From positions 1-14,509 of the forward strand of contig JBMSQQ010000085.1 of the NCBI GenBank assembly GCA_049423385.1: a stretch of 14,509 bases of DNA. Reading direction: 5' to 3'. The position numbers and the translations under genes are program-made. The stretch is from Silvanigrellaceae bacterium. Its GTDB lineage: Bacteria > Bdellovibrionota_B > Oligoflexia > Silvanigrellales > Silvanigrellaceae. Below are positions 1,840 through 14,509 of the stretch, in pieces (position 1 is the first letter of the stretch; each line of letters starts with the position of its first letter). Under the pieces are notes generated by a model. The model was not told the DNA's origin. It made no database searches and saw only the letters and a program-made list of their open reading frames with translations.

Positions 1840-4014
1840 CTATCTCAATCGTGATTCGAGATATTGGATGGCAGGTGAATCCGATGGTTCGCCCGAAGCT
1901 CTCAGCCGTGCAATTTCATCGAGGATTTGCCTGCGCCAACCCATGTCGAGTTGACCTTGTGCTGCAAGGGCTTCCTGTGCACTTCTGAAGTTTTGTCCGT
2001 CCTGCTCCTGTTGACTCTGACGCTCAGCTTCTTCTTCATCCTGCAATGCGGCCAGGGCTCGCACGATTCCATCCTGTGCTTCGTCCATCCCTGACTCCAT
2101 TTCCTGGTTGTTGCCTGTTTGCGCTCCCTGGCGAGCTTTTTGGTTTCCTTTTTGCGCGTCGCGGGCGGCATCCTGGAATTCGTTTGAAATGTCTGGAAGC
2201 GAGTCGAGATCCTGTTGTGATTTGCGGAGTGCATCCTTGGATTGTCCTTGGTTGCGGCGTGCATTCTGCAATTCGCTGTCGGCACGGGTCAGTCTTTCAC
2301 GCGCGTCGCGCATGGCCCGCTGTCTTGCCTGTTGCAGCATGGAAAGCACTCCACCCAGATGCTTCTGTGCATGCTCGAGTGTCGCTTGCGACTTGTTCAC
2401 CGAATCGGTCTGTTTGGATTGCTTCAGGGTTTGTTCGAGGTCCTTGAGATTTCCGGGAGTGTTGTCCATCTGCAATTCTCCCAGAGCAGTCTGTTTCTCT
2501 TGCAGTGTGAGGCCTGAGTTTGGCTTTTCAACCATTGCCGAAAGTTGTTTTTTGAGATTTGCCGCGGAACCGCGAAGTTCGTCGGCATCCTTGCCCAACT
2601 GTGGCAGTTGTTCAGGCGAGGCGCGTTGGATGGAAAGCTTGAGGTTTTGCAGCCGGGCCAAAAGATTTTGGATTTGGCTGGAAGTTTGTTCGCGCTTGAG
2701 CCGTTCGAGCAGGTTCTTGATTTTTTTCTCTGTCTGTTGCGCTGCCTGATCCCTCGGATTTTCGATCTTTTCTGCCGAACGTGAGATTTGTTCCGTTTGT
2801 TTTGCAGCGGCGCTTTGTGATCCCATCTGCTGCGCCGATTCGCGGGCTTTAGCCAACTCGCGAGACAATGTCTCTTTCAACTGTGATTTTGAGGTGGATT
2901 GGCTTTGCAGTGCCTGCAAAGATTTTTCGAGCGCCTGGATCAGATCCTGACGAATGCTTTCGCGGGTGATGATTTCAAATTTCAATTCTTCGGATTCACC
3001 TTGAATGGATTCAGCCACGGTCTTTGCAACAGCCTTGATGAAAAGCGTGTCTTTTGCCGAGAACGGAATGCCGGTGGTGTTGAATCCAATGCGGTTGCCA
3101 TCGAACGTTTGTTCATTCGCGTTGGCAAATTCGGCGACAGGCTTGACCATGCGGTATCCGGATGCTGTCCTCACATGGAATTCAACTGAGGCCAGTGGGA
3201 TTTTTGATCTCACTTTCACATCCAGAGGAACACTCCCCTCGCGTTCCGGTCCGCCGTTTGATTTGCTCAATTCCACCTGTGGTTTGGGTTGCGGTGTGAA
3301 CACCAGCGTTTGTTTTGCGTATTCCTGGTTGTTCTTCTGCACCAGAAGTTCGACCTTGTGGGCTTCCCGGGGGTCGAGAGAAAGTTGTTCCAGTATTGCC
3401 CTCGCACTGTGACCAAACTGCGCTGATGCCGGCAAGGAGACAGGCTTGGCATTTGCTGCAGATGTTTGAGGACGAAAAACCAAGGACCATTGGGAAGACT
3501 GCTTTCGGAACCTAATCTCGATCGACACGTAAGCATCCGCGTCTATTTCAAGTTCGTCGCTGACAATACCCTTGAGTTTTGTCTCCTTGGCCTGGGTGTC
3601 CACATAACTTGGATACTCAACCCTCAGGAAGACTTGTTCGCTGCGCAGTTTTTTTTCGAGCCATGTCAGCAGGTCTCGTCCCTTGGGGGCCAAGGGCGGA
3701 AGCGTTGCGATGCTCCACATCGTCAAAAGTCCGCATGCGAATACGAATCTTCTGCGGCCGAGTTTGCGGCGATCAAGTTTTCGGGTCTGCAGGTTGAGGT
3801 CGAGTCTTTCAGCTCCGATTGTTTGTTCAATCTTCAGGGGATGAAGCACCAGGAGATTCCAGGCTCCGGCAACCAGCAAGCCCAGAAGTGCGCCCAACCA
3901 GAAGAAGTCGCCACGGCTCGAGGTTGCAACCGATGACGAAGTGAACCCAACAAAAAAAAGGGTCCACGCCAAACTTCGCAAATCCATTTTCGAGATCATT
4001 TTTTCGCGGTCCAT
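1840..4014 (-). CDS. DUF4175 (TIGR02302)-like membrane-anchored protein with long Gln-rich coiled coil
   Basis: Two to three N-terminal hydrophobic helices, a beta-rich region (VEYPSY, P-P-V-L motifs), then about 350 aa of Q/E/K/L heptads. The C-terminus RRQILDEIARLRASGEPSDSPAIQYLESRLR resembles the remembered DUF4175 tail (RxILxExxxR...YLERL). ATG 4014 preferred over 4068: GGAGAG 8 nt upstream and no overlap with the exonuclease. Confidence 0.8.
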   Translation of the reverse strand: MDREKMISKMDLRSLAWTLFFVGFTSSSVATSSRGDFFWLGALLGLLVAGAWNLLVLHPLKIEQTIGAERLDLNLQTRKLDRRKLGRRRFVFACGLLTMWSIATLPPLAPKGRDLLTWLEKKLRSEQVFLRVEYPSYVDTQAKETKLKGIVSDELEIDADAYVSIEIRFRKQSSQWSLVFRPQTSAANAKPVSLPASAQFGHSARAILEQLSLDPREAHKVELLVQKNNQEYAKQTLVFTPQPKPQVELSKSNGGPEREGSVPLDVKVRSKIPLASVEFHVRTASGYRMVKPVAEFANANEQTFDGNRIGFNTTGIPFSAKDTLFIKAVAKTVAESIQGESEELKFEIITRESIRQDLIQALEKSLQALQSQSTSKSQLKETLSRELAKARESAQQMGSQSAAAKQTEQISRSAEKIENPRDQAAQQTEKKIKNLLERLKREQTSSQIQNLLARLQNLKLSIQRASPEQLPQLGKDADELRGSAANLKKQLSAMVEKPNSGLTLQEKQTALGELQMDNTPGNLKDLEQTLKQSKQTDSVNKSQATLEHAQKHLGGVLSMLQQARQRAMRDARERLTRADSELQNARRNQGQSKDALRKSQQDLDSLPDISNEFQDAARDAQKGNQKARQGAQTGNNQEMESGMDEAQDGIVRALAALQDEEEAERQSQQEQDGQNFRSAQEALAAQGQLDMGWRRQILDEIARLRASGEPSDSPAIQYLESRLR

Positions 4015-4036
4015 GAGCTCTGCTCTCCGTGTTGGA

Positions 4037-4720
4037 TCAGAGCTGCGCCATTTGCTCCTGCCAGGCATTCAGGTCGGCCAATGTCTGCAGCTCGGGGCGC
4101 TCTTTCAGCATGTTCCAGAGCACCTCAGCGGTCACCAGAATATCGCCGATGGAGCGGTGGCGCGACTCGAACGTCAGATTATAGTGTGCGGCCAGAGCAT
4201 CGAGGTTCTTGCGTTCGGATTGCACGAGTGCACGGGCCATCTTGAGCGTGCAAATTACGTGATACTGACAACTCATTCCTAATCTTGCACTTTCATGAAG
4301 CATTACGTTGCAGTCGAATTCTGCATTGTGGGCAACGCCAAGGCTTCCGCGCATGAACTCATGAAAATCGTAAAAAACGTTCTGGAGGCTGGGTGCGTCG
4401 GCCAGCATCTCATCGTTGATTCCCGTCAATCCAAACGTTTCGGGTGGAAGTTTTTGGCCTGGATTTACAAGCGTCGTGAATCGGCCAATTTCTTTCCGGT
4501 TGCGATACTTGATCGCGCCAATTTCAATGATTCTTGCTGTTTTTACATCGAGTCCGGTGGTTTCAAAGTCGAAAACCACAATTGGCAGCTCGCTGAGTTG
4601 AGCGCTTGGTGCAAAAGAAGAGCCACTGACTCCGCCCATGATGGCCAAAGGAGCGACCTGACGCGCGGAGCGTCCGTTCAAAAGCTGATGAAAAATGCTG
4701 TTTTGAAACGCAGAAGCCAT
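4037..4720 (-). CDS. DEDDh 3'-5' exonuclease (DNA polymerase III epsilon-like / PolC exonuclease-domain-like)
   Basis: ExoI VVFDFETTGLD, IIEIGA, LTGINDEML, ExoII VAHNAEFD, CTLKMAR, ExoIII HRSIGD. RBS GAGGT 9 nt upstream of the ATG. Not named dnaQ because orthology cannot be shown from sequence alone. Confidence 0.95.
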   Translation of the reverse strand: MASAFQNSIFHQLLNGRSARQVAPLAIMGGVSGSSFAPSAQLSELPIVVFDFETTGLDVKTARIIEIGAIKYRNRKEIGRFTTLVNPGQKLPPETFGLTGINDEMLADAPSLQNVFYDFHEFMRGSLGVAHNAEFDCNVMLHESARLGMSCQYHVICTLKMARALVQSERKNLDALAAHYNLTFESRHRSIGDILVTAEVLWNMLKERPELQTLADLNAWQEQMAQL

Positions 4721-4765
4721 TGTGTCGGTACCTCTTTGAGTTTTTTCCTAGCACGAAATCAGGAG

Positions 4766-4807
4766 CAAGAAAAAGCCGCCCATCCTCTTGCAAAGGGTTG
4801 GGCGGCT
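4766..4807 (-). terminator. Intrinsic terminator-like hairpin, minus strand
   Basis: Perfect 9-bp stem AGCCGCCCA (4774-4782) / TGGGCGGCT (4799-4807) with further imperfect inner pairing, followed on the minus strand by UUUUUCUUG. Confidence 0.6.
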
Positions 4808-4829
4808 ATTGTAAACGAACGTCTCACGA

Positions 4830-4905
4830 GGGCGGTTAGCTCAGTTGGGAGAGCGCAGCAATGGCATTGCTGAGGTCGTCGGTTCGATCCCGATACCGTC
4901 CACCA
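4830..4905 (+). tRNA. tRNA-Ala(GGC)
   Basis: 76-nt cloverleaf: acceptor GGGCGGT/ACCGTCC with the G3:U70 Ala identity pair, D arm GCTC-AGTTGGGA-GAGC, anticodon arm CAGCA-ATGGCAT-TGCTG (anticodon GGC, with the A32-U38 typical of tRNA-Ala GGC), T arm GTCGG-TTCGATC-CCGAT, discriminator A, encoded CCA. Confidence 0.98.
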
Positions 4906-4934: not shown

Positions 4935-6050
4935 TCACTTCGGAAGTCTATAAATCCTGCGGGCGTTTTCGCTCATGACAGCGCGTGCCTGTTCGAGGCT
5001 GTAACCAACACGGTCCATGCTCTTCAGTGTCAGCTGAACGTATTGTCCTGTTGCGCCCGGTTGCCCGGAAGCATCCGACCCATAAAGGATGCGGTCGACA
5101 ACGTTCATGTCTTTTAAACGGCGGAGGGCTCCGTCCATGAATTTCCCATCCTTGTCGTACATGGCAAGGCCAAATGCACTGATCTCAAAATACACATTGG
5201 GATATTTCTCAGCGAGTTTGTAAACCTCCTCCGAAAAATCAACTCCTTCCTTGTTGAAGTCGAAACCCATGTGGCCAAGGATGAAAGGCACATTGGGGTA
5301 CTTGGCGATTGCCCATTCGAGCGCTGTTGGATCTGCAGCTCTGAGGTAGTTCTTGCGTGCGTCGTCCGATGGGAAGTCCTTCATGCGGCGAATCGGTGAT
5401 GTGCCGATGTGATGATAGACGGGAACGTTCAGCTCTTGAGCCACCTTGTAGATTTCGTCGAATTGCTGATCATCCATCGGCAGCTCGTTGTGAACAAAGG
5501 CGAGCTTGATGCCCTTCATCCATGGGTGGGCCAATGCCTTGCGCAAGTTCGCAATTTCCTCGCTCGCATTGTCCGGAAAACGGTGAACGTTCAGGCTGGC
5601 CATGCCAAAGAAATACGACAGTTCGCCATTTGGTCCACGATTGCGCACGTCGTCGATGATTTTGATGATCGAATCGTTGTCGTAGGTGCCCCACGTGAGA
5701 GGGGCGTAAACCGCCATCAAACCGCACATGCTGAGTCCCGCGCTGATGCAGCTGGCACGCGTCCCGAAAATCGGGGTGTAGGGCTGAAGCACGAGATTGG
5801 CGTAGGTATCGAGGCTCCAGTTTTTGAAACCCATGGGAAGCCAATTTGGCAAGTTGCTCAGCACAAATTGCTTGCCCAGGGGACCCATGGTGCTCGCGTC
5901 GCCCACGTGTTGGTGAATATCGATCACTTCCACGGATTGTGAGCGGTATTGCGGAACCTTGAACGATGCCCGGGCCGAATTGAGTGGTGCAAAAAGTGCA
6001 AACAAAATAATCAACGGAATCTGCACAAAGCCATGTGTCAGGATTTTCAT
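4935..6050 (-). CDS. Amidohydrolase-family (Amidohydro_2-type TIM-barrel) metal-dependent hydrolase with N-terminal signal peptide
   Basis: Motifs IDIHQH (HxH), GIKL, PVYHHIG, ILGHMG, YPNVYFEIS, RILYGSD, ENARRIY. The N-terminus MKILTHGFVQIPLIILFALFAPLNSARA is Sec-like. RBS GGAGG 10 nt upstream. Confidence 0.92.
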   Translation of the reverse strand: MKILTHGFVQIPLIILFALFAPLNSARASFKVPQYRSQSVEVIDIHQHVGDASTMGPLGKQFVLSNLPNWLPMGFKNWSLDTYANLVLQPYTPIFGTRASCISAGLSMCGLMAVYAPLTWGTYDNDSIIKIIDDVRNRGPNGELSYFFGMASLNVHRFPDNASEEIANLRKALAHPWMKGIKLAFVHNELPMDDQQFDEIYKVAQELNVPVYHHIGTSPIRRMKDFPSDDARKNYLRAADPTALEWAIAKYPNVPFILGHMGFDFNKEGVDFSEEVYKLAEKYPNVYFEISAFGLAMYDKDGKFMDGALRRLKDMNVVDRILYGSDASGQPGATGQYVQLTLKSMDRVGYSLEQARAVMSENARRIYRLPK

Positions 6051-6157: not shown

Positions 6158-6850
6158 ATGATGTTCTCTGGAAAGTTCGTATTTTCGAGTCTTTTTGTGG
6201 GTTTGCTGATGTCCAATGGTGGAGTGGCAATCGCTTCCCAGACGCCGGCCAATGGGAACCAGAGCAACACTTCAGCCAAGCCCGAGGCCGCCAAGACCGG
6301 TTCGACCGCCAGCCAATCTCAAGACAAAGACGATGACATGGATGCGGGCGATATCGATGATCGATTCGCAACCGAGGGGTACGTTGGCGCCTATGTGGCG
6401 GGTCTTCAGGGCACAATCCCGTCCTTGGGCGTCACTGCGTCGGTCTTTTTGGATGACGATTTCCGCGCGGGAATCGATATTTGGAAAGGGCAATCGAAGG
6501 CTTTCTTCAGTTCCTTCAAAAGTCAGGGCGCAGGATTGTGGAGCGCCTGGGAGCTCAATGGTCAATTTTGGTTGAAGGGCGGATTGAGCTATTTGAGTCT
6601 CGAGCGCCCGACGGGGCAGGATCCCCTGCCTGCATTGACGAAAGCGAACGACACCACCGAAAAGTCTTCGACGCGTATCGACTCCATTTCCCTCGATGCT
6701 TCGATAGGGCAACTCTGGACGTTCTCCAAATTCAGCATTGGAGCAGATTACGTTGGATTCTCTTTGCCATTCATGACGTTGGTGGGAGAAAAGAAGTCCC
6801 TGTTCAACGTCCACGCGCTGCGCTTCGAGTTTCTCTACGATATCGACTGA
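6158..6850 (+). CDS. Exported protein, probable small outer-membrane beta-barrel
   Basis: Sec-like signal (..LFVGLLMSNGGVAIA), polar/acidic N-terminal linker, then amphipathic Gly/aromatic strands (LGVTASVFL, FRAGIDIW, FWLKGGLSYLSL, LDASIGQLWTF, FSIGADYVG, LRFEFLYDID). Confidence 0.75.
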   Translation: MMFSGKFVFSSLFVGLLMSNGGVAIASQTPANGNQSNTSAKPEAAKTGSTASQSQDKDDDMDAGDIDDRFATEGYVGAYVAGLQGTIPSLGVTASVFLDDDFRAGIDIWKGQSKAFFSSFKSQGAGLWSAWELNGQFWLKGGLSYLSLERPTGQDPLPALTKANDTTEKSSTRIDSISLDASIGQLWTFSKFSIGADYVGFSLPFMTLVGEKKSLFNVHALRFEFLYDID

Positions 6851-6862
6851 TTGATACCGTTT

Positions 6863-7567
6863 TTAGAGAAGATCCAGCAGATAGCTTGTCTTCATTTGAG
6901 TTGATTTGTCTTCGTTGCCAAGCACAAACGAAATGGATTCGAATGACGGCGGACCCGGAGGCGGAGTCAGCCGGGGCTTGCCGTTTTCAGAGAATGCGAG
7001 TCCCTCTTTGGGAATTCCAAACAGGTTATAGTTGAGTTTCTTGTCTTTGTTTTCGTCGTGCCATCCGGCGATTGCGTATGTTCCTGGCGGAAGATTTTGG
7101 ATTTGAACGTCGAACGACTTTTCAGCCACTGCAAAACATTCGGCGACAATCGCTTTTTCAGCTGAATCTGGGAATCCTTCGGAAGATGCGAAAATCGACA
7201 TGCAAAAGTTACCAGACACGCTGTGGAGATCTCTGATGCTCACGGTCAACACCGCGCGAGGCGGATTCAACGGACTGTTTCCGTTTCCCGAATTGTCGCC
7301 ATTTGTGTTTCCGCTGCCTGCTCCAGTCGGCTGGGAAGAGCCGCCAGCGCCTGAGAGATCATTTGAAGGCTTTTGATTGTCGGCAGAAACCGACGGGGTC
7401 TGCTGCGGGTTGGTTGGTCCTGGAACCTGGATGGGATTGACGGTGATCGGAACTCGAGGATCTTTTCCGACCGTCTCTCCGGATTTTTCTCCGCAGCCCG
7501 TTTGGGTGGTGAGCAAGAGAACGAATGCGCTGAACAACGGACACAATTTGCTTTCGAAAGCTTGCAT
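6863..7567 (-). CDS. DUF2141-domain lipoprotein with low-complexity Pro/Gly/Ser/Asn linker
   Basis: C-terminal LTVSIRDL..SG...GFP...LPPGTYAIAGWHDENKDKKLNYNLFGIPKEGLAFSEN...GPPSF is the DUF2141 pattern. Start moved from 7732 to ATG 7567: GGAGG upstream, it gives the signal MQAFESKLCPLFSAFVLLLTTQTG-C, and the longer version would run through a terminator. Confidence 0.88.
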   Translation of the reverse strand: MQAFESKLCPLFSAFVLLLTTQTGCGEKSGETVGKDPRVPITVNPIQVPGPTNPQQTPSVSADNQKPSNDLSGAGGSSQPTGAGSGNTNGDNSGNGNSPLNPPRAVLTVSIRDLHSVSGNFCMSIFASSEGFPDSAEKAIVAECFAVAEKSFDVQIQNLPPGTYAIAGWHDENKDKKLNYNLFGIPKEGLAFSENGKPRLTPPPGPPSFESISFVLGNEDKSTQMKTSYLLDLL

Positions 7568-7654
7568 AGGTGGCGGTGCCTCCGGCGCAGGAAATGCGGA
7601 CCGATGAAATGTCGAGTCAGCAGGCGCGAATCCGGACCCTAACATCACCCACTG

Positions 7655-7694
7655 AAAACAAAAAGAAAAAGCCGGCAGGGATGCCGACTTTTTT
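7655..7694 (-). terminator. Rho-independent terminator of the porin-like gene
   Basis: Minus-strand RNA AAAAAA-GUCGGCA-UCCC-UGCCGGC-UUUUUCUUUUUGUUUU. The stem is fully paired (one G:U) on the minus strand but has a C-A mismatch on the plus strand. Begins about 35 nt after the stop at 7729. Confidence 0.88.
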
Positions 7695-7728
7695 GGAATC
7701 ATCAAGGAGTCCGGGCTATTGAGAGTGC

Positions 7729-8952
7729 TCAATAGTCGTAGCGAATCCTCATCCCGAATGCGTGTTCGCTTTTCGCAGCCTTGCGGTCGGCACCGGAGAC
7801 CAGGATCTTTCTGTCTGCCAGTGCGTCACCCGTGGTGTTGCCGGTGTTCGCTTGCGCGCGGTTGGAATTGAAGAAGTTGTAGGATGGAATAAAGCTGAGC
7901 TTCTCATCCAGGAAATATTGGCCTGCCAACACCAGCGATGCTTCGCTCGCAGAGGACACCAGTGGCGAGTTTTCTGCCGTGAAGTCCTTGAATCCATCAG
8001 ATGGAAGTTTGAGCGAACGCCAGCCGACTTCTCCAATCAGCGTCAGCTCTTTGGGAAGAAGATCGTATTTTGCACCCACCAGAGCCGTGGTCGCAATCTT
8101 GTTTGCAGCAACGAGGTTGCCATCGCTGAGTTTTGTTGTTGCATAAGCGTCGTATGCAATGCCGTATTTCAGTTTCAGGTCGTCCACTTTGCTTTCGGCG
8201 ACAACATGAATGAAGTTGTCGTATTTGATTTTGCTGGAATCGCTCAGGCTGAGCCATTTGCCCTGTACACCAACCCCAAGTTCAACTTTTGTCGCGTCAT
8301 CGATTGCAACGTTGCTCGACAATTTGTGATACCAGGTGGTGTTGGAAGGCTTTTGTCCGAGCGTGTATTCATTCTGGTCTGGATTGCGGGCCACGTGATA
8401 GGTAACTTTGGATTTGTCATCAATAGCGTATTGTGCACGGTAACCTTCCACTCGGCCCATGTGACCTGTGAACGATGGAGATTCAACCACGTTCGTGCTC
8501 TTGGGCTTGTCTGTATAGCCATACAGGCCAGGCTCCATCTCACGAACATAGCCCAACTCAAGTCCATCGACCTGAGGAACCTTGAACAGCAAGTGGAAGT
8601 ACTTGAGTGTGCCTGTATTGACGATCGACTTGTTGTCGTCATTGTTGGTTACATACCAAGGTTTCTTTTGCGAGTTTTCGCGGCTTTCGAACTCATGCAG
8701 GCGAACTTCGACGTCGGCCTTGCTGTATTTTCCGAATTCACGTTCGAACATCAAACGGAACGATTCGAGTTTCGGAATTTTGTAGTTTTTTGCGGCATCG
8801 TTTATATTTTTGTAGAAGGGGTCCAGGTGTGCACGCATGCCAATCTTGGTGCTGGTGTCGGCTTTGGCTGCCGGAGTGGCAGCGGGTGTTGAATCTGCGA
8901 GGGCCAGAGAAGAAACCAAAGAAAATGCGGACAAACCAATCAAAGATTTCAC
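7729..8952 (-). CDS. Outer-membrane beta-barrel, porin-like
   Basis: GTG start with AAGGAGG. Sec signal MKSLIGLSAFSLVSSLALA-D. Many amphipathic strands with aromatic girdle residues (VELGVGVQG, LKLKYGIAYD, LVGAKYDL, LIGEVGWR, LAGQYFL, FIPSYNFF). C-terminal beta-signal HAFGMRIRYDY. Has its own terminator. Confidence 0.88.
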   Translation of the reverse strand: MKSLIGLSAFSLVSSLALADSTPAATPAAKADTSTKIGMRAHLDPFYKNINDAAKNYKIPKLESFRLMFEREFGKYSKADVEVRLHEFESRENSQKKPWYVTNNDDNKSIVNTGTLKYFHLLFKVPQVDGLELGYVREMEPGLYGYTDKPKSTNVVESPSFTGHMGRVEGYRAQYAIDDKSKVTYHVARNPDQNEYTLGQKPSNTTWYHKLSSNVAIDDATKVELGVGVQGKWLSLSDSSKIKYDNFIHVVAESKVDDLKLKYGIAYDAYATTKLSDGNLVAANKIATTALVGAKYDLLPKELTLIGEVGWRSLKLPSDGFKDFTAENSPLVSSASEASLVLAGQYFLDEKLSFIPSYNFFNSNRAQANTGNTTGDALADRKILVSGADRKAAKSEHAFGMRIRYDY

Positions 8953-9141
8953 ATCGCCTCCTTAAGACGGTTTTTGCAAAAACTGCTTTAACTAACAAAG
9001 ACAGTCCTTTTCGAAAAAATGCAACCGTCCATACCTTCGTGACCCTGAATTTCACGCAAGAGTCACAGAATTGGTCGCGTCTGCTTGTTAAATGTTCAAA
9101 TTGTTGAAACCATCTATTCCTGAAAGCTTCAGGAGTTTCCC

Positions 9142-10233
9142 GTGTGGAACAAAAAAGCCATTTTTGTTTTGTTTGCATGTGTGGCTGCGCAACCTGCTCA
9201 AGCCATCATGTTGATGGAAGATGAACTGAATCCGAAGCCTCAGTTTTCAGAACGGCTGCCGGGTCGTGGAGGAGCGGGATTCTCTGCCCGGCTTTTGACC
9301 AGCATTGGTCAGGATGTGGTCGAAACCACAATCAATGAGCAGACCGAAAAAAGGCTTTTTGCTGCTTTGGGTCTGGCGGCGCAGGCTTTTATTCCCTTCA
9401 CCGACAAAATAAGGCTCGATGTCGCTGCAAGTGCGGTGCGTGCGAGTGGAAGCACCCTTGTTGAAGAAAATTCCGGTTGGAAAAAAGCCGACACGCAGTC
9501 GGAAGTCATGACACGGGGACATGCTCATTATCAATTGAATGATGGCCTTCGTATCGGTGCAGGCGCAGTTTGGGTCATGCGTCCTGCGGCCCAGGAGACA
9601 TTTGAATTTGCCGGTCAGTCGGCGATGAAACGATTGTCGGGTTACTCCTTTTGGACGCCGGATTTTTCGGCTGGAAAGGAAGGCAGCGGATGGAGCGCTG
9701 GTCTGGGATGGCGTCCACGAGTCACCCAAAGCCGAACCTTCGTTCGTGAGGGTGCCGATGAGACGGTTGAGGTCAGCGAAGATGTTTCGTTGGATGAACT
9801 GTGGTCAATTGGTATTGTCTCACAACTGGGGGGGAGTCGAACCCTCCGCCTTGACGTGAACCTTCATGGAAGCAATTCGTCGCAAACGCGTGAGACTTCG
9901 TCGAGCGATGGCTCAACTTCAACTTCAACCTCGGAAGACAACAGTCGTCGACGCTACGAAGTCGGAATCATCCTGAGCCTTGCTGAATTTGGCGGTCACA
10001 GTTGGAGTCTGGGCGGATCATACCAGTCGATTGGATACAGCGACCAAAGCAACGTGACTCCGCAGAATATTCCATTGTGGGGAGTGTTGCTTCGCGACGA
10101 ATTCAAGCAGGCTGATGTCAACATGTTCGTGGATGGCTTGTTCGGATTGGGAACAGACCTGCAAAGTCTTCCGGATTTGAACGCAAAATACAAAAGAACG
10201 ATTTTCTCTATGCAGACCGGGGTTCGCTTTTAA
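9142..10233 (+). CDS. Outer-membrane beta-barrel protein (first gene of plus-strand operon)
   Basis: GTG with AGGAG 6 nt upstream. Signal MWNKKAIFVLFACVAAQPAQA. Amphipathic strands (HAHYQLNDGLRIGAGAVW, WSAGLGWR, WSLGGSYQ). C-terminal FSMQTGVRF beta-signal. Ser/Thr-rich loop SSSDGSTSTSTSED. Confidence 0.85.
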   Translation: MWNKKAIFVLFACVAAQPAQAIMLMEDELNPKPQFSERLPGRGGAGFSARLLTSIGQDVVETTINEQTEKRLFAALGLAAQAFIPFTDKIRLDVAASAVRASGSTLVEENSGWKKADTQSEVMTRGHAHYQLNDGLRIGAGAVWVMRPAAQETFEFAGQSAMKRLSGYSFWTPDFSAGKEGSGWSAGLGWRPRVTQSRTFVREGADETVEVSEDVSLDELWSIGIVSQLGGSRTLRLDVNLHGSNSSQTRETSSSDGSTSTSTSEDNSRRRYEVGIILSLAEFGGHSWSLGGSYQSIGYSDQSNVTPQNIPLWGVLLRDEFKQADVNMFVDGLFGLGTDLQSLPDLNAKYKRTIFSMQTGVRF

Positions 10234-10244
10234 GGGGAGGGTCC

Positions 10245-10910
10245 ATGAAGAGCGTGTTGCTGAAGACAGCAATCCCGTTGGTGCTGTTGGTTGCTGGATT
10301 GGCGGCCTGCCGCTTGAAGTCCACTCTGACGGAATCAAGCGAGTCAGCTGCTGTTGACGCAATTCCATTTGCCAAGGCTGGAGGCGAAGATGCTGTTGGG
10401 CTGGCCCGTGTGCATGCCGAGTCGTTTGCATCTGCGCCAGCAGCGATCCGTCCTGATCCCGATTTGTATGCCCGAAGGTTGATCCGGCAATTCCGCAGCG
10501 ACGGCAACACCATGGCAAGGCAGCTTGGGCTTGTTGAGCAGTACCGCTTGATGCTGGGTGGTGCCTCCGACGATTTCCGCACTGTTCCCCAGGATACCTA
10601 CGACGCAACCTCGCTTCTGACTCTGCAGAAAGTCGCCCAGGAAATCTGTATTTCACTTGTCGCGCCAACGTCATGGAGACAGCCCGGATGGTCGACCGTT
10701 CTCACGGAGCCGCCTGCGCAGGTTGAAGCCAATGTTCGATCATTGATGAAAAGAATGCTGGGGATTTCCGAAAATTCACTCGATGCCACTGCGGTTGCCG
10801 ATTTGGTTGCCATGGTCAACGCCGAGCCTGTGGATGGCAAGATTGCGAATGAAAGCTACATCACGGCCTGCACCGCAATTGCCATGGATGCGGAGGCACT
10901 GTTGTTGTGA
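10245..10910 (+). CDS. Lipoprotein, helical, function unknown
   Basis: GGAGG RBS, start 11 nt after the previous stop. Canonical lipobox LAA-C22. Two further Cys (QEICISL, TACTAI). Its stop overlaps the next start (GTGA). Confidence 0.88.
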   Translation: MKSVLLKTAIPLVLLVAGLAACRLKSTLTESSESAAVDAIPFAKAGGEDAVGLARVHAESFASAPAAIRPDPDLYARRLIRQFRSDGNTMARQLGLVEQYRLMLGGASDDFRTVPQDTYDATSLLTLQKVAQEICISLVAPTSWRQPGWSTVLTEPPAQVEANVRSLMKRMLGISENSLDATAVADLVAMVNAEPVDGKIANESYITACTAIAMDAEALLL

Positions 10911-12568
10911 AGTTGTCATTCTTTTATCAAACATTATTTATTTTCCTGTTCTCTGTGTTGTGGTCTGTTGATGCCCAGGCAGCAAGTTCGCGGTCTGTGC
11001 GTCGTGCAACCCAGTTGTTGTCGGGCCGGATGCCAACCGATGCAGAAATCTCATCGGCCACAGCGTCGGATACCGGCTATCGAACACTTGTCCGTAGTCT
11101 TGTCACAAGTGATCAATTTTACGACGCTGCACTCCGCTACCATGAGCGTGTGTTGGGAGTTGGCCTTCCCGAGGAATACCTCAAGGAACTCGAACGCGAT
11201 GACATCGACGGCAAGTCGCAAAAAGTGGCCAAGCTCACCTGCAAGAGATCGACGAACAACAGACTCTACTGTGCATGGAAAAACTCCGATAAACGCACAA
11301 CATCTACTTGTCTTGCCGCAGAGCAACACCCCGTCGCACCCTTCTGGAAATCGGGTCTCGTTCTCTGGGTGTGCCCGAGCGTTTCGCATGCCTGTGGCGC
11401 AGACCTCAGCAAGTGCAGCATTGAGTTTCCCGAGAATGCCGCGGAGGCACGTCACTCGGAGATTGGCACCACCGATGTCTTCGATTCTCGCCGCAGCATG
11501 CTCAAGAGTCTTAGTCGACAAGCAGCCGGTATTGCCACGGCAGTGGCGGTGGCGAATTACCCCTACACAAAAATTCTCGCGCCCGGGCTTACAGCCGTTG
11601 ATGGTATTCTTTCTGTCTTTCTGCAGCAGAATTTTCAATTCGATGTCACCAAGGTTCATGCAAATGAATCCTTGCTGAACCAGATAAAGGCGATTCCTGC
11701 ATCACAAAGTCGCTTTCAGTTGATCTACACGGGCAATGCCTATGAAACGGCAGGGGTGTTGTCGACTTTTGGATGGCTCCGTCGCTACGAGAAAAACCGG
11801 ACGCGCGCCAATCAACTTTACGAACGGTTGTTGTGCAGAAAATTCACTTCTGAATTGCCGCGCGTATTTCCACAGGATCCGGGTAATCTGCGAACCACAC
11901 CTGGCTGCAGCGGATGTCATGCAACACTGGATCCTCTTGCAGACTTTTTTGGTGTATGGGGCGAGGGTGGAGGATTGTATGCAGGATTGTCTGCCAGTCG
12001 GGATGCAAGTTTCATCGGAAAAACCGGAACGAGTTTGGCTGACCTGGCCAACATCATCACGGCCGACGAGGCCTTTGCGACCTGCACGGTCAACAATGTT
12101 TTTGAATACCTCATGGGCCGGAAATTTCGTATTGCAGAATCTGATTTACGGCAGTCCCTGACGGATTACTTCATTGCCAGCAATTTCAGTTTCCGCGAAT
12201 TGATGTACGCGGTGGCAACCCATCCAGGCTTCACGGTCAACACCCGTGCGGATGCCAACATCACCGACCCCCTTGAACAACCTGCATTGGGCAAGGTTCC
12301 AGAGCCAAGCCTGCCGGCTTGTTCCAAGACGATTGACTTCAACACCGATATTGCACCGCTGATATCTGCATGCACTTCGTGTCACCGCAGTGGTGCTCCT
12401 CGTCAGGCTTTGGAAACATCTGCACAGTGGAAAACCTGGGGCAGCCAGGCAGTCTCGATGATTTCGATTGGACAAATGCCACCTGGGATGCAAGGAGCGC
12501 CAGCAACCGGAAGTGCAATGTACAATTTGAAGGAAGCCGTGCGTTGTTGGTTGACCCAAAATCCTTGA
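10907..12568 (+). CDS. Exported two-CxxCH c-type cytochrome-like protein (DUF1549/DUF1588/DUF1585-like core plus C-terminal cytochrome c domain)
   Basis: Sec signal ending AQA. Motifs RRATQLLSGRMPT; GVLST..WL.....NRTRAN..Y..LLC; CSGCHATLDPLA (CxxCH at 11906-11920); FATC..VFEYLMGR..FSFRELMYAV; IDFNTDIAPLISACTSCH (CxxCH at 12371-12385) with distal GQMPP. GGAGG RBS and 4-nt GTGA overlap with the lipoprotein gene. Confidence 0.88.
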   Translation: MKLSFFYQTLFIFLFSVLWSVDAQAASSRSVRRATQLLSGRMPTDAEISSATASDTGYRTLVRSLVTSDQFYDAALRYHERVLGVGLPEEYLKELERDDIDGKSQKVAKLTCKRSTNNRLYCAWKNSDKRTTSTCLAAEQHPVAPFWKSGLVLWVCPSVSHACGADLSKCSIEFPENAAEARHSEIGTTDVFDSRRSMLKSLSRQAAGIATAVAVANYPYTKILAPGLTAVDGILSVFLQQNFQFDVTKVHANESLLNQIKAIPASQSRFQLIYTGNAYETAGVLSTFGWLRRYEKNRTRANQLYERLLCRKFTSELPRVFPQDPGNLRTTPGCSGCHATLDPLADFFGVWGEGGGLYAGLSASRDASFIGKTGTSLADLANIITADEAFATCTVNNVFEYLMGRKFRIAESDLRQSLTDYFIASNFSFRELMYAVATHPGFTVNTRADANITDPLEQPALGKVPEPSLPACSKTIDFNTDIAPLISACTSCHRSGAPRQALETSAQWKTWGSQAVSMISIGQMPPGMQGAPATGSAMYNLKEAVRCWLTQNP

Positions 12569-12584
12569 AGTGGAGAACCTTCCA

Positions 12585-13892
12585 ATGGATCGCCGATCTT
12601 TTTTGGAGTCTGGAATCAGCTTGAGCGCAACATTTGCACTGTCGCGGCTCTTTTCGGGAACTCCTGCGTTTGCCCAGACCGGAAGTGAAGAGTTTCCGGT
12701 ATTGCGCAGGCTTGTTTGGATTCATATGGGAGGCGGTTGGGACATCCTGGAAACAGTCGATCCAAAGCAGGCCTCAACTTCCAAGCTGGACATGGTCTAT
12801 GATTACGGATTGGCCAACGCACTGAGCGGGGCGAGTCAGGATGTCCGGTTGGGAAGATGGTGGCCAAACACGGCCCGTCATGGGAAGGATTTGATTCTGG
12901 TGCGTGGATTGGCCATGGGCACCACTTCACACGATGCTGGCAGCGTGTACGCAGACACTGGAGTTCTATCCAACAGCGGCAATGTTAACGCGGCATCGAT
13001 TCCGACAATTGTTGCTTCGCAAAGCGGTGCCACGATTCCGCTGATCCAACTTTCGGGTGGCGACAACCCGCGGCTGGACCGAGGCCTGTTGAAACCCGTT
13101 TCCGTGGTGCGGGCGAACGACCTGGGTGTGTATCAAAATTTGTTTCCCCAGAATCAACAAGCCATCGATGCGAGTTCGCGCATCCTGGAATATTCACGTC
13201 GTTCCCTGCTTCGATTTCAATCTTCGGTGGGTTCCAACGACAGGGCTGCACTGGTTGAGGCTGCCCGCAGCAAAATCCAGGGACAGATCGACGCCGGAGT
13301 CGGCAGCAAGCTTCAACTGAATGCGTCAGATCGCCAGCCTTTTGTCTCGGCCCTGGGCACCGACGCAGCAACTTCACCGGCGCGCGGTTCGGTGGACAGT
13401 TTTGCGCTTGCAGTGAAACTTTTAAAAAATGATCTGGTGACTTGCATCAACATGGGTGTTGGTGGATTCGACACACACACCACGCAGGATCGCAGCCTGA
13501 TGCCAATTCTCACCGGCTTCGATGCACTGTTTGCAACGTTTCTTTCGCAATTGAAGGCGAATGATCTGTTGTCCAAAACCCTGGTGGTGCTCTATTCCGA
13601 TTTTGGTCGCACGCCCAAGGTCAACCGTTCCGCGGGCCGTGATCACTGGCCAATTGGTGGTGCCTTGATGGCTGGAGGCGGCCTGGATGGCGGTCGAGCC
13701 GTGGGTGCGACCGATGAAAATCTCCTGGCATTGAACGTCGATCCTTCAACGGGTCTGATCTCCAATTCTGGTGTGCAGCTGAGCCCGGTTCATCTGGGTG
13801 GCAGCGTTCTCGAATTGACCTTGGGATCGGGTTATTTGTCCAAGCGACCTTATCTTGAATCGATTCCTGCGCTCACACGCCTGAAGTCTTGA
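12585..13892 (+). CDS. DUF1501-family protein with twin-arginine (Tat) signal
   Basis: ATG 12585 (GGAGA 8 nt upstream) gives MDRRSFLE...TPAFA. DUF1501 motifs IHMGGGWD..ETVDPK, TTSH, GGFDTH, YSDFGRTPKVN, GRDHWP, MAGGG..GGRAVGATD. Confidence 0.93.
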   Translation: MDRRSFLESGISLSATFALSRLFSGTPAFAQTGSEEFPVLRRLVWIHMGGGWDILETVDPKQASTSKLDMVYDYGLANALSGASQDVRLGRWWPNTARHGKDLILVRGLAMGTTSHDAGSVYADTGVLSNSGNVNAASIPTIVASQSGATIPLIQLSGGDNPRLDRGLLKPVSVVRANDLGVYQNLFPQNQQAIDASSRILEYSRRSLLRFQSSVGSNDRAALVEAARSKIQGQIDAGVGSKLQLNASDRQPFVSALGTDAATSPARGSVDSFALAVKLLKNDLVTCINMGVGGFDTHTTQDRSLMPILTGFDALFATFLSQLKANDLLSKTLVVLYSDFGRTPKVNRSAGRDHWPIGGALMAGGGLDGGRAVGATDENLLALNVDPSTGLISNSGVQLSPVHLGGSVLELTLGSGYLSKRPYLESIPALTRLKS

Positions 13893-13906
13893 AAGAGGAC
13901 AATGTC

Positions 13907-14509
13907 ATGTGGTTTCCTGTCGATCTTCCCATGCCGAGTGAGCATTTTGTCTTGCGGACTCAAACCCAGCAGAGCAACACACCATTCACCAAGGGAATGT
14001 TGCTGCCGTTGTCCTGGCGAACACTGGATACGAATTCGAGTTCAAGTGCCACCCAGAACGGAACGTCAACCTCACAAACGTCTTATGCGAAGACGATCAA
14101 GCGCAACACAGGCTTGGCGTTTTCACCCTCATCGGGACTCTGGTTCTCGGCATTGTTCAACGAGGATGTGACCTCCTTGCGGAGCGTGCCTGAAACTGGA
14201 ACTTATCGGGTGAGCGGCGCACTTGAAGAGTTCACGGTCCGGGAGGTTCTGGCCCGGGTTGGGCTCGATTTGAATGCCGCCTGCTCGGTTGGAATTGCCT
14301 TGCGAGGGCAAAGCGTGAAAGGCGATATTCTTGGAAATTTCAGCGTGGCTCCAGACGAACGGACTCTCTATTCGGGACAACGGATGGGAGTTGCAGGGGC
14401 GGCAATGATCAATTGGCAGCAGTTGAAGGGGGCTGTTCGTTATGAGTCTCCTTTGACTGGGAAGGTTTCCATCGGCGGGGAAAGCAAAGTCAGTTCGGCA
14501 CCCGGATAT
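13907..14509 (+). CDS. Probable beta-strand-rich / beta-barrel-like protein, 5' part only (runs off the right edge; not in the ORF track)
   Basis: AGAGGA 7 nt upstream of ATG 13907; 201 open codons to the edge. Amphipathic strands TGLAFSPSSGLWFSALF, VLARVGLDLNAACSVGIALRG, MGVAGAAMINW, LKGAVRYESP. No recognisable signal peptide. Confidence 0.75.
   Translation, partial: MWFPVDLPMPSEHFVLRTQTQQSNTPFTKGMLLPLSWRTLDTNSSSSATQNGTSTSQTSYAKTIKRNTGLAFSPSSGLWFSALFNEDVTSLRSVPETGTYRVSGALEEFTVREVLARVGLDLNAACSVGIALRGQSVKGDILGNFSVAPDERTLYSGQRMGVAGAAMINWQQLKGAVRYESPLTGKVSIGGESKVSSAPGY

Follow-up and report, generated by a model that had tools for sequence, protein, structure and literature searches.

The locus described here raises the question of whether five closely packed genes, found at positions 9142-14509 of the window (the whole 14,509-nt stretch of DNA that was analysed), constitute a single system and which task such a system could perform. 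All five lie on the + strand. Gene 1 (9142-10233) encodes a 363-aa predicted barrel protein with a Sec-type hydrophobic N-terminus, gene 2 (10245-10910) a 221-aa lipoprotein, and gene 3 (10907-12568) a 553-aa protein with two heme-c motifs and, again, a Sec-type hydrophobic N-terminus. Gene 4 (12585-13892; ATG start, alternative GTG at 12570) encodes a DUF1501 protein of the Tat route, and gene 5 (13907-14509; ATG start, alternative TTG at 13889) is cut by the window end after its first 201 codons. When the ATG starts are used, the intergenic gaps are 11, -4, 16 and 14 nt, exactly as given for five co-directional genes in a preliminary description of this DNA, the negative value being a 4-nt overlap (GTGA) between the gene 2 stop and the gene 3 start. 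The ribosome-binding sites claimed for each gene are also present, a GGAG/GAGG-type motif being located 6-15 nt upstream of all five starts. The claim that no terminator is evident between the genes agrees with a terminator scan of the region, which detected four terminator-like sites against 7.7 expected from shuffled sequences and no convincing internal one in genes 1-5; the sole + strand site within them (11748-11764) is weak. The three export routes that had been announced can be recognized in genes 1 to 4 (Sec N-termini in genes 1 and 3, a lipobox in gene 2 and an RRSFL Tat motif in gene 4). The gene 5 of the window has no signal peptide, so that an export signal is carried by only four of the five proteins.

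The conservation of this arrangement was followed through 58 related loci collected from public genomes, mostly from Oligoflexia, Silvanigrellales or Bdellovibrionota, only the assessable loci entering the count of each gene. Gene 2 was found in 51/51 loci, gene 4 in 54/55, gene 1 in 44/48 and gene 5 in 43/48, and the complete set was present in 35 of the 43 loci that are fully assessable, colinear and on one strand in 34 of them. The synteny of the lipoprotein and of both barrels with the heme/DUF1501 pair, chosen in advance as a test of the proposed system, is thereby upheld. The relatives that keep the gene order have gene 3 proteins sharing 47-56% identity with that of the window, and the genes outside the five vary by lineage: RecJ and a solute-binding protein flank them in the Oligoflexales loci, a 407-aa protein, a DUF2141 protein and an amidohydrolase in the clade of the window. 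The stop/start overlap of genes 2 and 3 recurs in 20 of 31 loci besides the window, and the other 11 show gaps of 7-27 nt. A few loci (L018, L019, L027, L031, L045 and L046) are exceptions, in which one of the barrel genes is missing or insertions or an inversion are present. The five-gene arrangement is far above chance and recurs in dozens of genomes, and on these genomic grounds the five genes are predicted to form a conserved envelope operon of Oligoflexia-type bacteria. A full-text literature search found no paper describing the set.

At E <= 0.01 gene 1 matches nothing in Pfam or NCBIfam, and its assignment comes from an AlphaFold2 model (mean pLDDT 82.5, pTM 0.77) that is all-beta past residue 46, with 18 DSSP strand segments read as 14 strands. 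When this model was compared with the PDB using Foldseek, ranks 1-24 were occupied by FadL, TodX, TbuX, a P. aeruginosa FadL homologue and 9hiv_F (best E-value 4.6e-12, TM by query 0.52-0.69). The transporting FadL, TodX and TbuX proteins hold ranks 1-18, while 9hiv_F, at rank 19, is a chain of a Bacteroides BAM complex; porins appear from rank 29 down, with TM values of 0.25-0.5. The protein terminates in ...GVRF. The hatch of FadL carries an NPA motif, and the titles of PDB 2r4o, 2r4l and 2r4n, which are among the gene 1 matches, name NPA, P34A and N33A mutants; the motif is found in 0/43 members of the gene 1 family. The modelled gene 1 product is an outer-membrane beta-barrel with a FadL/TodX-like fold.

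The proposal of a barrel-like gene at each end of the cluster stands for gene 1 by this confident model and for gene 5 by homology only. Full-length relatives of gene 5 reach 360-404 aa, from which a protein of about 360 aa would be expected in the window. Its barrel-like nature is suggested by weak Pfam porin and OMP matches among the relatives, by a profile-profile comparison that aligns about 270 columns with the gene 1 family (probability 82% and 66%; E 1.1e-5 and 5.6e-5) and makes the two genes distant paralogues, and by language-model look-alikes whose recognition value, 2156, lies under the tool's reliability mark of 2300. Outside the clade of the window, NPA is found near the N-terminus in 31/36 homologues and a hydropathy threshold predicts a signal peptide in 28/36. 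Neither feature was found in the 10 loci of the clade or in the window, where the top 10-residue hydropathy within the first 70 residues is 0.87, compared with 2.7-3.0 in genes 1-3. The ATG-TGG start of the window is the same in all 10 of these loci, with an in-frame stop 1-50 codons upstream, and dN ranges from 0.25 to 0.62, dS being saturated. These comparisons indicate that the clade's gene 5 has neither signal peptide nor NPA, yet is maintained under purifying selection. Since the gene 5 product of the window has no export signal, gene 1 encodes the sole barrel of this genome for which targeting to the envelope is demonstrable. Gene 5 is missing altogether in 5/48 loci, and in two of these its place is taken by an unrelated signal-peptide protein resembling outer-membrane proteins.

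Gene 2 encodes a protein with a LAAC lipobox, and its Cys22, together with C135 and C209, is invariant in 32/32 aligned homologues. No credible Pfam match was obtained for the family, the only hits being to four unrelated families, with one member each (E 0.007-0.12). At E <= 0.001, relatives are limited to 44 cluster representatives among 1.84 billion; nearly all are of 276 aa or less, and the two longer ones, of 1088 and 428 aa, give weak matches only. By these sequence comparisons, gene 2 represents a narrow, unnamed and new lipoprotein family. Under the sorting rule of E. coli lipoproteins, the absence of Asp at position +2 predicts an outer-membrane location; such an Asp occurs in 0/32 homologues, and this location is therefore predicted for the gene 2 product.

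DUF1800 and DUF1549/DUF1553 genes had been named in the preliminary description as the common partners of DUF1501 genes. Gene 3 is of neither the DUF1800 nor the full DUF1549/DUF1553 type; its profile matches describe a compact protein of the PSD2/PSCyt3 type with two heme-c motifs, of which the N-terminus is weakly DUF1549-like. Pfam PSD2 (DUF1585) matches residues 371-442 (E 6.2e-10, 39.1 bits for a cut-off of 25.8). PSCyt3 is found below threshold in 18/18 family members (best E 1e-4), PSCyt2 in 9/18 and Cytochrome_CBB3 in 8/18, also below threshold, and DUF1800 in only 2/18, at E >= 0.089. The two CxxCH motifs previously noticed are confirmed. The first, CSGCH (residues 334-338; 11906-11920, + strand), lies within the invariant PSCyt3-like block GCSGCHATLDPLADFF; the second, CTSCH (residues 489-493; 12371-12385, + strand), belongs to a small C-terminal cytochrome-c-like domain with an invariant M524-P525 downstream. 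C334, C337, H338, C489, C492, H493, M524 and P525 are invariant in 91/91 aligned homologues. A cytochrome c fold of the C-terminal domain is only weakly suggested, by sub-threshold Cytochrome_CBB3 matches in 20/31 C-terminal fragments (best E 0.001) and by PDB profile matches at E <= 10, 25/29 of them to c-type cytochromes, with NapB as the best (E 0.0047). The predicted model of gene 3 (pLDDT 52) is too poor for use, and its 218 homologues at E <= 0.001 are all unnamed or annotated as 'hypothetical'.

The DUF1501 identity of gene 4 is secured by a Pfam match with E 1.7e-34 (120.1 bits for a cut-off of 27). R3-R4 of its MDRRSFL N-terminus are invariant in 35/35 sequences, as are D53, T113, S115, H116, N130, D296-T297-H298 and D353-H354; the nucleophile and metal ligands are presumptive, being assigned by motif resemblance. 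Its PDB profile matches at E <= 10 are weak (best E 0.0068), and 24/26 are to sulfatases, one phosphonate monoester hydrolase or ENPP4, all of the alkaline-phosphatase superfamily. The formylglycine motif C/S-x-P/A-x-R is absent from the gene 4 of the window and occurs at no conserved column of the family. Its profile matches place gene 4 in DUF1501 and give it a core of the alkaline-phosphatase/sulfatase type, in which the formylglycine motif is missing.

The region upstream of the cluster contains a conserved non-coding block at 9051-9089 (+ strand), composed of TTCACGCAAGAGTCACAGAATTG, 7 nt and CTGCTTGTT and located 53-91 nt before the gene 1 start, between this gene and a divergent 407-aa gene. 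The block aligns in 7/7 intergenic regions of the clade. Its 15-mer AGAGTCACAGAWTTG (9059-9073) is single-copy in the window (expected 0.01) and occurs once in each of 7/58 loci, every time a short distance before gene 1. The block is a candidate promoter or operator, and its TCAC...GTCAC pattern has an 11-nt period that we take to resemble sites of OmpR/PhoB-type regulators. The divergent gene (7729-8952, - strand) encodes a protein with a signal peptide, ending in ...RIRYDY, whose sequence resembles that of outer-membrane proteins. It has no Pfam match at E <= 1 and no similarity to the gene 1 and gene 5 profiles (probability 0.2% and 0.1%). It adjoins gene 1 in only 10 loci, all closely related, and its membership of the five-gene system is uncertain.

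The preliminary description had left the barrels a choice between importing a substrate and exporting or anchoring subunits. The FadL/TodX-like fold favors the import of a hydrophobic substrate over these broader options, and we tentatively propose that such esters are taken up by FadL-type import and processed in the periplasm by the hydrolase/two-heme pair, a possible reading rather than a probable one. A hydrophobic or amphipathic ester, for example a lipid-like phospho- or sulfo-ester, would enter via the FadL-type channel or channels. It would meet in the periplasm the gene 4 metallohydrolase, folded and metal-loaded in the cytoplasm before its Tat export. This enzyme would act with the two-heme protein of gene 3, which may be translationally coupled to gene 2 and is probably retained at the membrane through the gene 2 lipoprotein; the hemes might serve in electron transfer, in the oxidation of substrate or product, or in sensing. 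Several observations speak against a channel: gene 1 lacks both the NPA motif and a Toluene_X match, and the gene 5 product of the window lacks an export signal.

FadL homologues are not always transporters, BamG and PorV being two that have protein-binding roles (PMC12578637). The barrels could likewise be protein-docking or shuttle subunits that hold, assemble or expose at the surface the products of genes 2-4 at the outer membrane. The roles of PorV in type IX secretion and of BamG in the Bacteroidota BAM complex (PMC12578637) offer precedents, to which can be added the BAM chain at rank 19, the absence from gene 1 of the NPA of transporting FadL proteins and the adjacency of a barrel gene to a lipoprotein gene without +2 Asp. 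This explanation nevertheless appears unlikely, given that the top structural matches are the transporters, that NPA is retained in most gene 5 relatives and that no surface-export signal or secretion-system gene is found within the five genes or their flanks. Phosphorus or sulfur scavenging, in which soluble esters would enter through barrels serving as general porin-like routes and be attacked by the DUF1501 protein as a Tat-exported phosphatase, phosphodiesterase or sulfatase of the non-formylglycine kind, with the heme protein as an accessory, would suit the weak matches of gene 4, its invariant Asp, His and Thr residues and the periodic TCAC...GTCAC block. It is decidedly unlikely: the barrel fold is FadL-like and differs from general porins, neither a Pho box nor a known regulator was identified, the neighbourhood contains no genes for phosphate or sulfate transporters, and the strictly conserved heme protein would be left without explanation.

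A barrel gene and a heme-c-motif gene in one cluster also recall the MtrAB- or Pcc-type conduits of extracellular electron transfer, and sub-threshold Pfam MtrC/MtrF domains are indeed detected in 4/18 full-length and 6/31 C-terminal gene 3 sequences. These matches are however confined to the CxxCH neighbourhood (E >= 0.017), and gene 3 consists mainly of non-cytochrome PSD/PSCyt-type sequence. Only two heme motifs, small FadL-like barrels of about 360 aa (14 strands as read in gene 1) and the lack of a large sheath barrel lead us to reject a likeness to multiheme wires, as anticipated in the preliminary description, and such a conduit is very improbable. It is just as hard to believe that the five genes are mere neighbours without common function. 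The few loci with a missing barrel, insertions or an inversion would allow it, whereas the order kept in most loci despite divergent gene 3 proteins and differing flanks, as well as the frequent stop/start overlaps, argue strongly in the opposite direction.

The proposed import and processing of esters can finally be set against known systems. MtrAB and PccH/Pcc resemble this locus in that one operon holds both a barrel and a heme-motif gene, and differ by their many hemes, whereas here two heme motifs and small FadL-like barrels are accompanied by a hydrolase-type enzyme and a lipoprotein. Among the FadL/TodX/TbuX channels for hydrophobic compounds, whose genes often lie next to those of enzymes acting on what is imported, the gene 1 model finds its best superpositions (TM by query <= 0.69), and a signal peptide with an N-terminal NPA extends the FadL likeness to most gene 5 relatives, the window's excepted. 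Unlike OmpP1/FadL/Toluene_X proteins, neither gene 1 nor the gene 5 family gives a Toluene_X Pfam match, and about 24 residues precede the first strand of gene 1, compared with roughly 40 in FadL. The DUF1800-DUF1501 pairs of Proteobacteria (PMC5122149) are similar in that the gene for a twin-arginine DUF1501 protein and that for a partner whose function is unexplained form a conserved unit of two genes; gene 3 is not a DUF1800 protein, however, and the chitin-synthase genes with which those pairs travel (PMC5122149) are absent at the locus of the window. The closest relatives are the conserved modules of a PSCyt/PSD cytochrome-like gene and a DUF1501 gene in Planctomycetes, Verrucomicrobia and Lentisphaerae. 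In the accessible portions of the reports, the DUF1501 genes of Planctomycetes and Verrucomicrobia lie in clusters together with PSCyt and PSD genes, DUF1501 being found with PSCyt1/PSCyt2/PSD1 and PSCyt3 with DUF1552, and no function is known for the DUF1501 proteins, which bear twin-arginine motifs (PMC3542564; PMC5615132). From the same portions, a Tat-motif DUF1501 protein adjoining a signal-peptide CxxCH protein with PSD/PSCyt domains is common to both, the partner here being a compact 553-aa PSD2 protein with sub-threshold PSCyt3 and a small C-terminal cytochrome-like domain, whereas flanking FadL-like barrels and a dedicated lipoprotein are not described there. The host lineage also differs, being Oligoflexia/Bdellovibrionota. 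What is new here is that two FadL-like barrels, together with a lipoprotein that is itself new, are joined to a heme/DUF1501 pair already known but functionally unexplained.

Five adjacent genes on the + strand close the window, whose G+C content is about 52% over 14,509 nt. They were called as gene 1 (9142-10233), gene 2 (10245-10910), gene 3 (10907-12568, 553 aa), gene 4 (12585-13892, with an ATG start and an alternative GTG at 12570) and gene 5 (13907-14509, with an ATG start and an alternative TTG at 13889), the last being cut by the window end. The gaps of 11, -4, 16 and 14 nt given in the preliminary description were reproduced with ATG starts, and a GGAG/GAGG-type ribosome binding motif precedes each of the five starts, as had been proposed. 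The absence of an evident terminator was likewise confirmed by a consensus scan, which returned 4 terminator-like sites versus 7.7 expected by chance, the sole + strand site within the five genes being weak. A sigma-70 consensus scan of positions 8700-14509 gave no promoter site, and neither a riboswitch nor a leader was detected upstream of gene 1 with Rfam at E <= 1, where the matches consisted of a tRNA and two hits at chance level. The export signals were recovered in part: genes 1 and 3 encode Sec-type signals, gene 2 a lipobox and gene 4 a twin-arginine motif, while gene 5 carries none.

The distribution of this arrangement was investigated starting from gene 3, for which 218 homologues were found at E <= 0.001 among 8,000 candidates scored. 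The 120 matches listed are 50-94% identical and all unnamed or annotated as 'hypothetical', and the source labels of the homologues include Bdellovibrionota and Oligoflexales. A locus scan limited to one genome per species, using as query an alignment of 18 gene 3 homologues, produced 58 loci. Of these, 37 are labelled Oligoflexus, Oligoflexales, Silvanigrellaceae/Silvanigrellales, Pseudobacteriovorax or Bdellovibrionota and the other 21 bear generic labels such as 'Pseudomonadota bacterium'; a single cultured carrier, Oligoflexus tunisiensis Shr3 (locus L022), is present. ORFs were called in all loci and assigned by iterated profile searches seeded with the proteins of the window, a locus being considered assessable for genes 2 and 4 when its flank measured 400 nt or more, and for genes 1 and 5 when it measured 700 nt or more. 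Gene 2 was present in 51/51 assessable loci, gene 4 in 54/55, gene 1 in 44/48 and gene 5 in 43/48. The complete set was found in 35 of the 43 loci assessable for all five genes, so the synteny of both barrels and the lipoprotein with the cytochrome/DUF1501 pair, anticipated in the preliminary description, extends to other genomes. The genes are colinear on one strand in 34 of these 35 loci.

The departures from this organization are varied. One locus (L033) breaks after gene 3 and continues into unrelated sequence, another (L018) has an inverted gene 1, and two contain insertions, of 1.5 kb before gene 5 (L019) and of 1.1 kb between genes 1 and 2 (L045). Gene 1 is missing from L027 and L046, and L048 offers only a weak candidate, a 280-aa ORF matching the gene 1 profile at E 1.5e-5. 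Gene 5 is missing from L020 and L031, and in L034 (8858-9934) and L047 (10001-11113) its place is taken by another protein, about 360 aa long and equipped with a signal peptide. These two replacements share 28% identity (E 4e-49), resemble outer-membrane proteins and have no match to the profile of gene 1 or of gene 5. It can be mentioned separately that gene 3 of L045 is read as two overlapping ORFs (6965-8661), pointing to a frameshift or an assembly error. Beyond the five genes the surroundings change with lineage: in Oligoflexales the set is preceded by RecJ and followed by a family-5 solute-binding protein; a 407-aa protein, a DUF2141 protein and an amidohydrolase accompany it in the clade of the window (the window and loci L002, L003 and L005-L012). 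Because the genes outside are lineage-specific, it is the five genes that form the conserved unit. A 4-nt overlap joins the stop of gene 2 to the start of gene 3 in the window and in 20 of 31 loci, and gaps of 7-27 nt separate them in the other 11, under a rule that takes the first start codon from 12 nt before the gene 2 stop onward and favours an overlap where one exists. From this layout, the lipoprotein gene is predicted to be translationally coupled to the heme protein gene.

Several features of the neighborhood deserve a description of their own. The 407-aa protein, which has a signal peptide and belongs to no known family, is encoded divergently from gene 1 (7729-8952, - strand). Its gene is followed further upstream by those of the DUF2141 protein (6863-7732, -), of a 230-aa protein of no family (6158-6850, +) and of an Amidohydro_2 protein (4935-6050, -), and all four are kept upstream in close relatives only. 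The possibility that the 407-aa protein is a third barrel paralogue was discarded, as it has no profile similarity to gene 1 or gene 5. Between its gene and gene 1 lies a strongly conserved non-coding block (9051-9089), a candidate operator or promoter that includes TCAC...GTCAC at an 11-nt period. A single copy of the 15-mer AGAGTCACAGAWTTG is present in the window (0.01 expected) and in each of 7 related loci, in every case upstream of gene 1. More distally, a tRNA-Ala with anticodon GGC (4830-4905, +) overlaps the end of a 192-aa ORF (4295-4873) that is probably spurious. ORFs of 742 aa (1840-4068, -) and 188 aa (1260-1826, -), both devoid of Pfam or NCBIfam matches, are adjoined by the genes of a DnaQ-like exonuclease (4037-4720, -) and a LysR regulator (383-1351, +). 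On the other side, a + strand gene starts about 70-125 nt after gene 5 in the three closest relatives whose sequence extends far enough (L002, 6819-8126; L003, 11178-12566; L006, 11161-12513), a region that the window ends too early to include. The N-terminus of its product, of about 450 aa, resembles a lipobox; the protein matches VWA_2 very weakly (E 0.044), and no match to it was detected in loci L007-L012.

The two CxxCH motifs announced for gene 3 were verified as CSGCH and CTSCH, starting at residues 334 and 489 respectively. Between them lies a PSD2/DUF1585 domain (PF07624, residues 371-442, 39.1 bits versus a cut-off of 25.8), which is found in 18/18 members scanned. The other assignments are fainter. 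PSCyt3/DUF1588 (PF07627) reaches 13.8 bits on the protein of the window, under its cut-off of 27 and limited to residues 328-346 around CSGCH, and it is weak and sub-threshold in 18/18 members (best E 1e-4); PSCyt2/DUF1549 is sub-threshold at the N-terminus of 9/18 (best E 3.8e-6) and Cytochrome_CBB3 at the C-terminus of 8/18. Across 91 sequences, twelve cysteines are invariant, both CxxCH pairs among them, together with H338, H493, H79, H439 and M524-P525. The C-terminal 89 residues, in which CTSCH is followed by the invariant M524-P525, may form a cytochrome c domain, as weakly suggested by Cytochrome_CBB3 matches in 20/31 C-terminal fragments (all below cut-off, best E 0.001) and by PDB profile matches, 25/29 of which, weak ones with a best E of 0.0047, are cytochromes c. 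With the gene 3 profile, PDB sequences gave no meaningful match (HACE1 and a pilin at E ~0.3). The AlphaFold2 model of gene 3, built on an 18-sequence alignment, is too poor for structural claims (mean pLDDT 52.2, pTM 0.36); Foldseek gave no match to it at E <= 0.001, cytochromes c6, c5 and c554 appearing only at E ~3.

The assignment of gene 4 to DUF1501 is firm (PF07394, E 1.7e-34, 120.1 bits versus a cut-off of 27, residues 46-384 on profile positions 2-339 of 390). The protein starts with MDRRSFLE, and R3 and R4 are invariant in 35/35 sequences; passages in two articles report that a twin-arginine signal is frequent in the DUF1501 family (PMC3542564, PMC5122149). Searched as a single sequence, gene 4 found nothing meaningful in the PDB. 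As a profile it matched, at E <= 10, sulfatases, phosphonate monoester hydrolase or ENPP4 in 24/26 cases, and these matches are weak (E 0.0068 to 2.8), each covering a single segment of about 35-100 residues. The invariant positions are D53, T113, S115, H116, N130, D296-T297-H298 and D353-H354. By comparison with the motifs of the alkaline-phosphatase superfamily, we read these Asp, His, Thr and Ser residues as a putative metal site in which a Thr or a Ser would be the nucleophile. In type I sulfatases, C/S-x-P/A-x-R is the motif converted to formylglycine. This motif does not occur in gene 4 of the window, which is therefore not classified as a type I (formylglycine) sulfatase; it is found somewhere in 10/35 homologues, with no aligned column shared by more than 6 sequences.

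The product of gene 2 is a predicted bacterial lipoprotein, with a lipobox L-A-A-C whose Cys22 is invariant in 32/32 homologues and preceded by small residues in most of them. C135 and C209 are invariant as well, a strongly conserved block reads PAxIRPDPDL..RRLL, and Asp at position +2 occurs in 0/32 sequences. Pfam searches of the 32 homologues at E <= 5 returned four unrelated single matches and no credible family, and an NCBIfam scan at E <= 0.01 returned no match. When 1.84 billion cluster representatives were searched exhaustively with the gene 2 profile, only 44 reached E <= 0.001, and 26 of them E <= 1e-30; their length is 41-276 aa in nearly all cases, and the matches of two longer proteins (1088 and 428 aa) are weak. 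Gene 2 thus defines a narrow, stand-alone family. Two other origins were considered and rejected: a domain split off from gene 3 (profile comparison probability of 0.1%) and a piece of the long PSCyt3 proteins, the exhaustive search having given almost only short stand-alone proteins. A likeness to PSD2/PSCyt3 proteins suggested by structural neighbours in the Atlas (TM ~0.5 for a query model of pLDDT 0.56) is an unconfirmed lead.

The barrel proposed at each end of the operon was upheld for gene 1 by its model and superposition on FadL. Built on a 28-sequence alignment, the AlphaFold2 model (mean pLDDT 82.5, pTM 0.77) is all-beta over residues 46-362, where DSSP delimits 18 strand segments that are read as 14 strands with breaks. 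Foldseek retrieved 275 PDB matches at E <= 0.001. Ranks 1-24 (E 4.6e-12 to 2.4e-8, TM by query 0.52-0.69) are occupied by E. coli FadL and its mutants, TodX, a P. aeruginosa FadL homologue, TbuX and chain 9hiv_F, from a Bacteroides BAM-complex entry; general porins appear only from rank 29 on, with TM values of 0.25-0.5. The predicted structure therefore has the fold of the FadL/OmpP1/Toluene_X channels, a barrel of about 14 strands. At E <= 0.01, gene 1 matched no family of Pfam, Toluene_X (PF03349) included, and none of NCBIfam. The N-terminal hatch of FadL-type proteins carries a conserved NPA motif, and PDB titles among the structural matches of gene 1 name NPA, N33A and P34A mutants; the motif is present in 0/43 homologues of the gene 1 family.

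Full-length relatives of gene 5 measure 360-404 aa. They are related to the gene 1 family by profile-profile comparison over about 270 columns (probability 82% and 66%, E 1.1e-5 and 5.6e-5). A Pfam/NCBIfam scan of gene 5 of the window at E <= 0.01 was empty, and weak Pfam matches to OMP_b-brl (6/30) and Porin_4 (4/30) were obtained with its relatives. Language-model neighbours of its orthologue in L002, a locus of the same clade, belong largely to Toluene_X/FadL clusters, which is weak evidence because the recognition value of 2156 falls below the tool's mark of 2300. Outside the clade of the window, NPA is found in 31/36 gene 5 homologues, 20-63 residues from the ORF start, and 28/36 pass the hydropathy threshold for a signal peptide. 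Gene 5 is accordingly taken as a second FadL-like paralogue.

Within this clade, the second barrel of the preliminary description departs from expectation: in the window and in 10/10 clade loci, gene 5 lacks both the signal peptide and NPA. The protein of the window begins with MWFPVDLPMPSEHF; over its first 70 residues, the hydropathy of 10-residue segments peaks at 0.87, versus 2.7-3.0 for genes 1-3. Across the clade the N-terminus reads MW(F/A/Y)P..., with a maximum of 1.14 or less. The start is ATG-TGG in all cases, with a ribosome binding site and an in-frame stop 1-50 codons upstream. These close stops, found in all 11 sequences, rule out a signal peptide hidden by an upstream or frameshifted start. 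The ORF is intact, with about 360 codons, and in pairwise comparisons dS is saturated and dN is 0.25-0.62, close to gene 1. The signal-less gene 5 is therefore maintained by selection.

The interpretation of the operon in the preliminary description, a candidate outer-membrane complex, is thus supported in part. The reading preferred here is offered tentatively: a hydrophobic or amphipathic ester would be taken up through the barrels, since FadL-type channels admit hydrophobic molecules, and would be processed in the periplasm by the DUF1501 enzyme together with the lipoprotein-tethered heme protein. The superfamily in which the enzyme would be placed comprises hydrolases and transferases of phospho- and sulfo-esters, and the Tat export of the enzyme suggests that a cofactor may be loaded in the cytoplasm, as also argued for DUF1501 in a passage of PMC3542564. 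The main rival, rather unlikely in our estimation, holds that the barrels dock or shuttle proteins, as do PorV and BamG; the latter, a 14-stranded subunit of the Bacteroides BAM complex, is called a FadL homologue in part of PMC12578637. Scavenging of phosphorus or sulfur from soluble esters is compatible with the same enzyme superfamily and is rated somewhat lower still. A porin-cytochrome conduit of the MtrAB/Pcc type would account for a barrel next to a heme protein and is very improbable: two CxxCH in 553 aa do not make a multiheme protein, and a FadL-like barrel of 363 aa is no large sheath. On these grounds, an Mtr-like conduit was rejected. Just as little credence is given to a chance adjacency of the five genes, found together as they are across genomes.

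A bolder version of the ester reading is regarded as improbable. It supposes a route from outer membrane to periplasm dedicated to a hydrophobic phospho- or sulfo-ester and, within the clade of the window, a signal-less gene 5 product with an unconventional route to the envelope or a non-membrane role; it might, for example, be carried with the folded Tat substrate encoded just upstream. If such a dedicated route exists, it would provide a first substrate class for the DUF1501 and planctomycete PSCyt/PSD families, which are very large; Oligoflexus tunisiensis Shr3, a cultured carrier of the cassette, would then serve as a tractable model. A lesser puzzle, concerning change in outer-membrane protein families, is posed by the conserved barrel homologue that lacks a signal peptide. 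More generally, the cassette places the DUF1501-PSCyt/PSD pair in a fixed context in another lineage, with two FadL-like barrels and a dedicated lipoprotein, and hydrophobic ester uptake and processing is therefore a testable idea. Two large families devoid of assigned function would thereby gain a functional context and a cultured model.

The five-gene set was not found in the literature on DUF1501, DUF1800, the PSCyt/PSD families, Silvanigrella/Oligoflexia and FadL/PorV, a scope that stops short of the supplementary locus figures of PMC3542564 and PMC5615132, where DUF1501-adjacent barrels or lipoproteins are possibly shown. Portions of PMC3542564, and of PMC5615132 with its preprint, describe DUF1501 paired with PSCyt/PSD proteins of unknown function in Planctomycetes, Verrucomicrobia and Lentisphaerae, and according to the same portions of the two articles the partners of DUF1501 in these modules are PSCyt2-type genes, those of the PSCyt3 type being associated with DUF1552. 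DUF1800-DUF1501 pairs, also of unknown function, are mentioned for Proteobacteria in a passage of PMC5122149. Compared with the PSCyt-DUF1501 modules of the PVC bacteria, the cassette described here belongs to a different lineage, its heme protein is a compact hybrid, and it adds a dedicated lipoprotein and two flanking FadL-like barrels.
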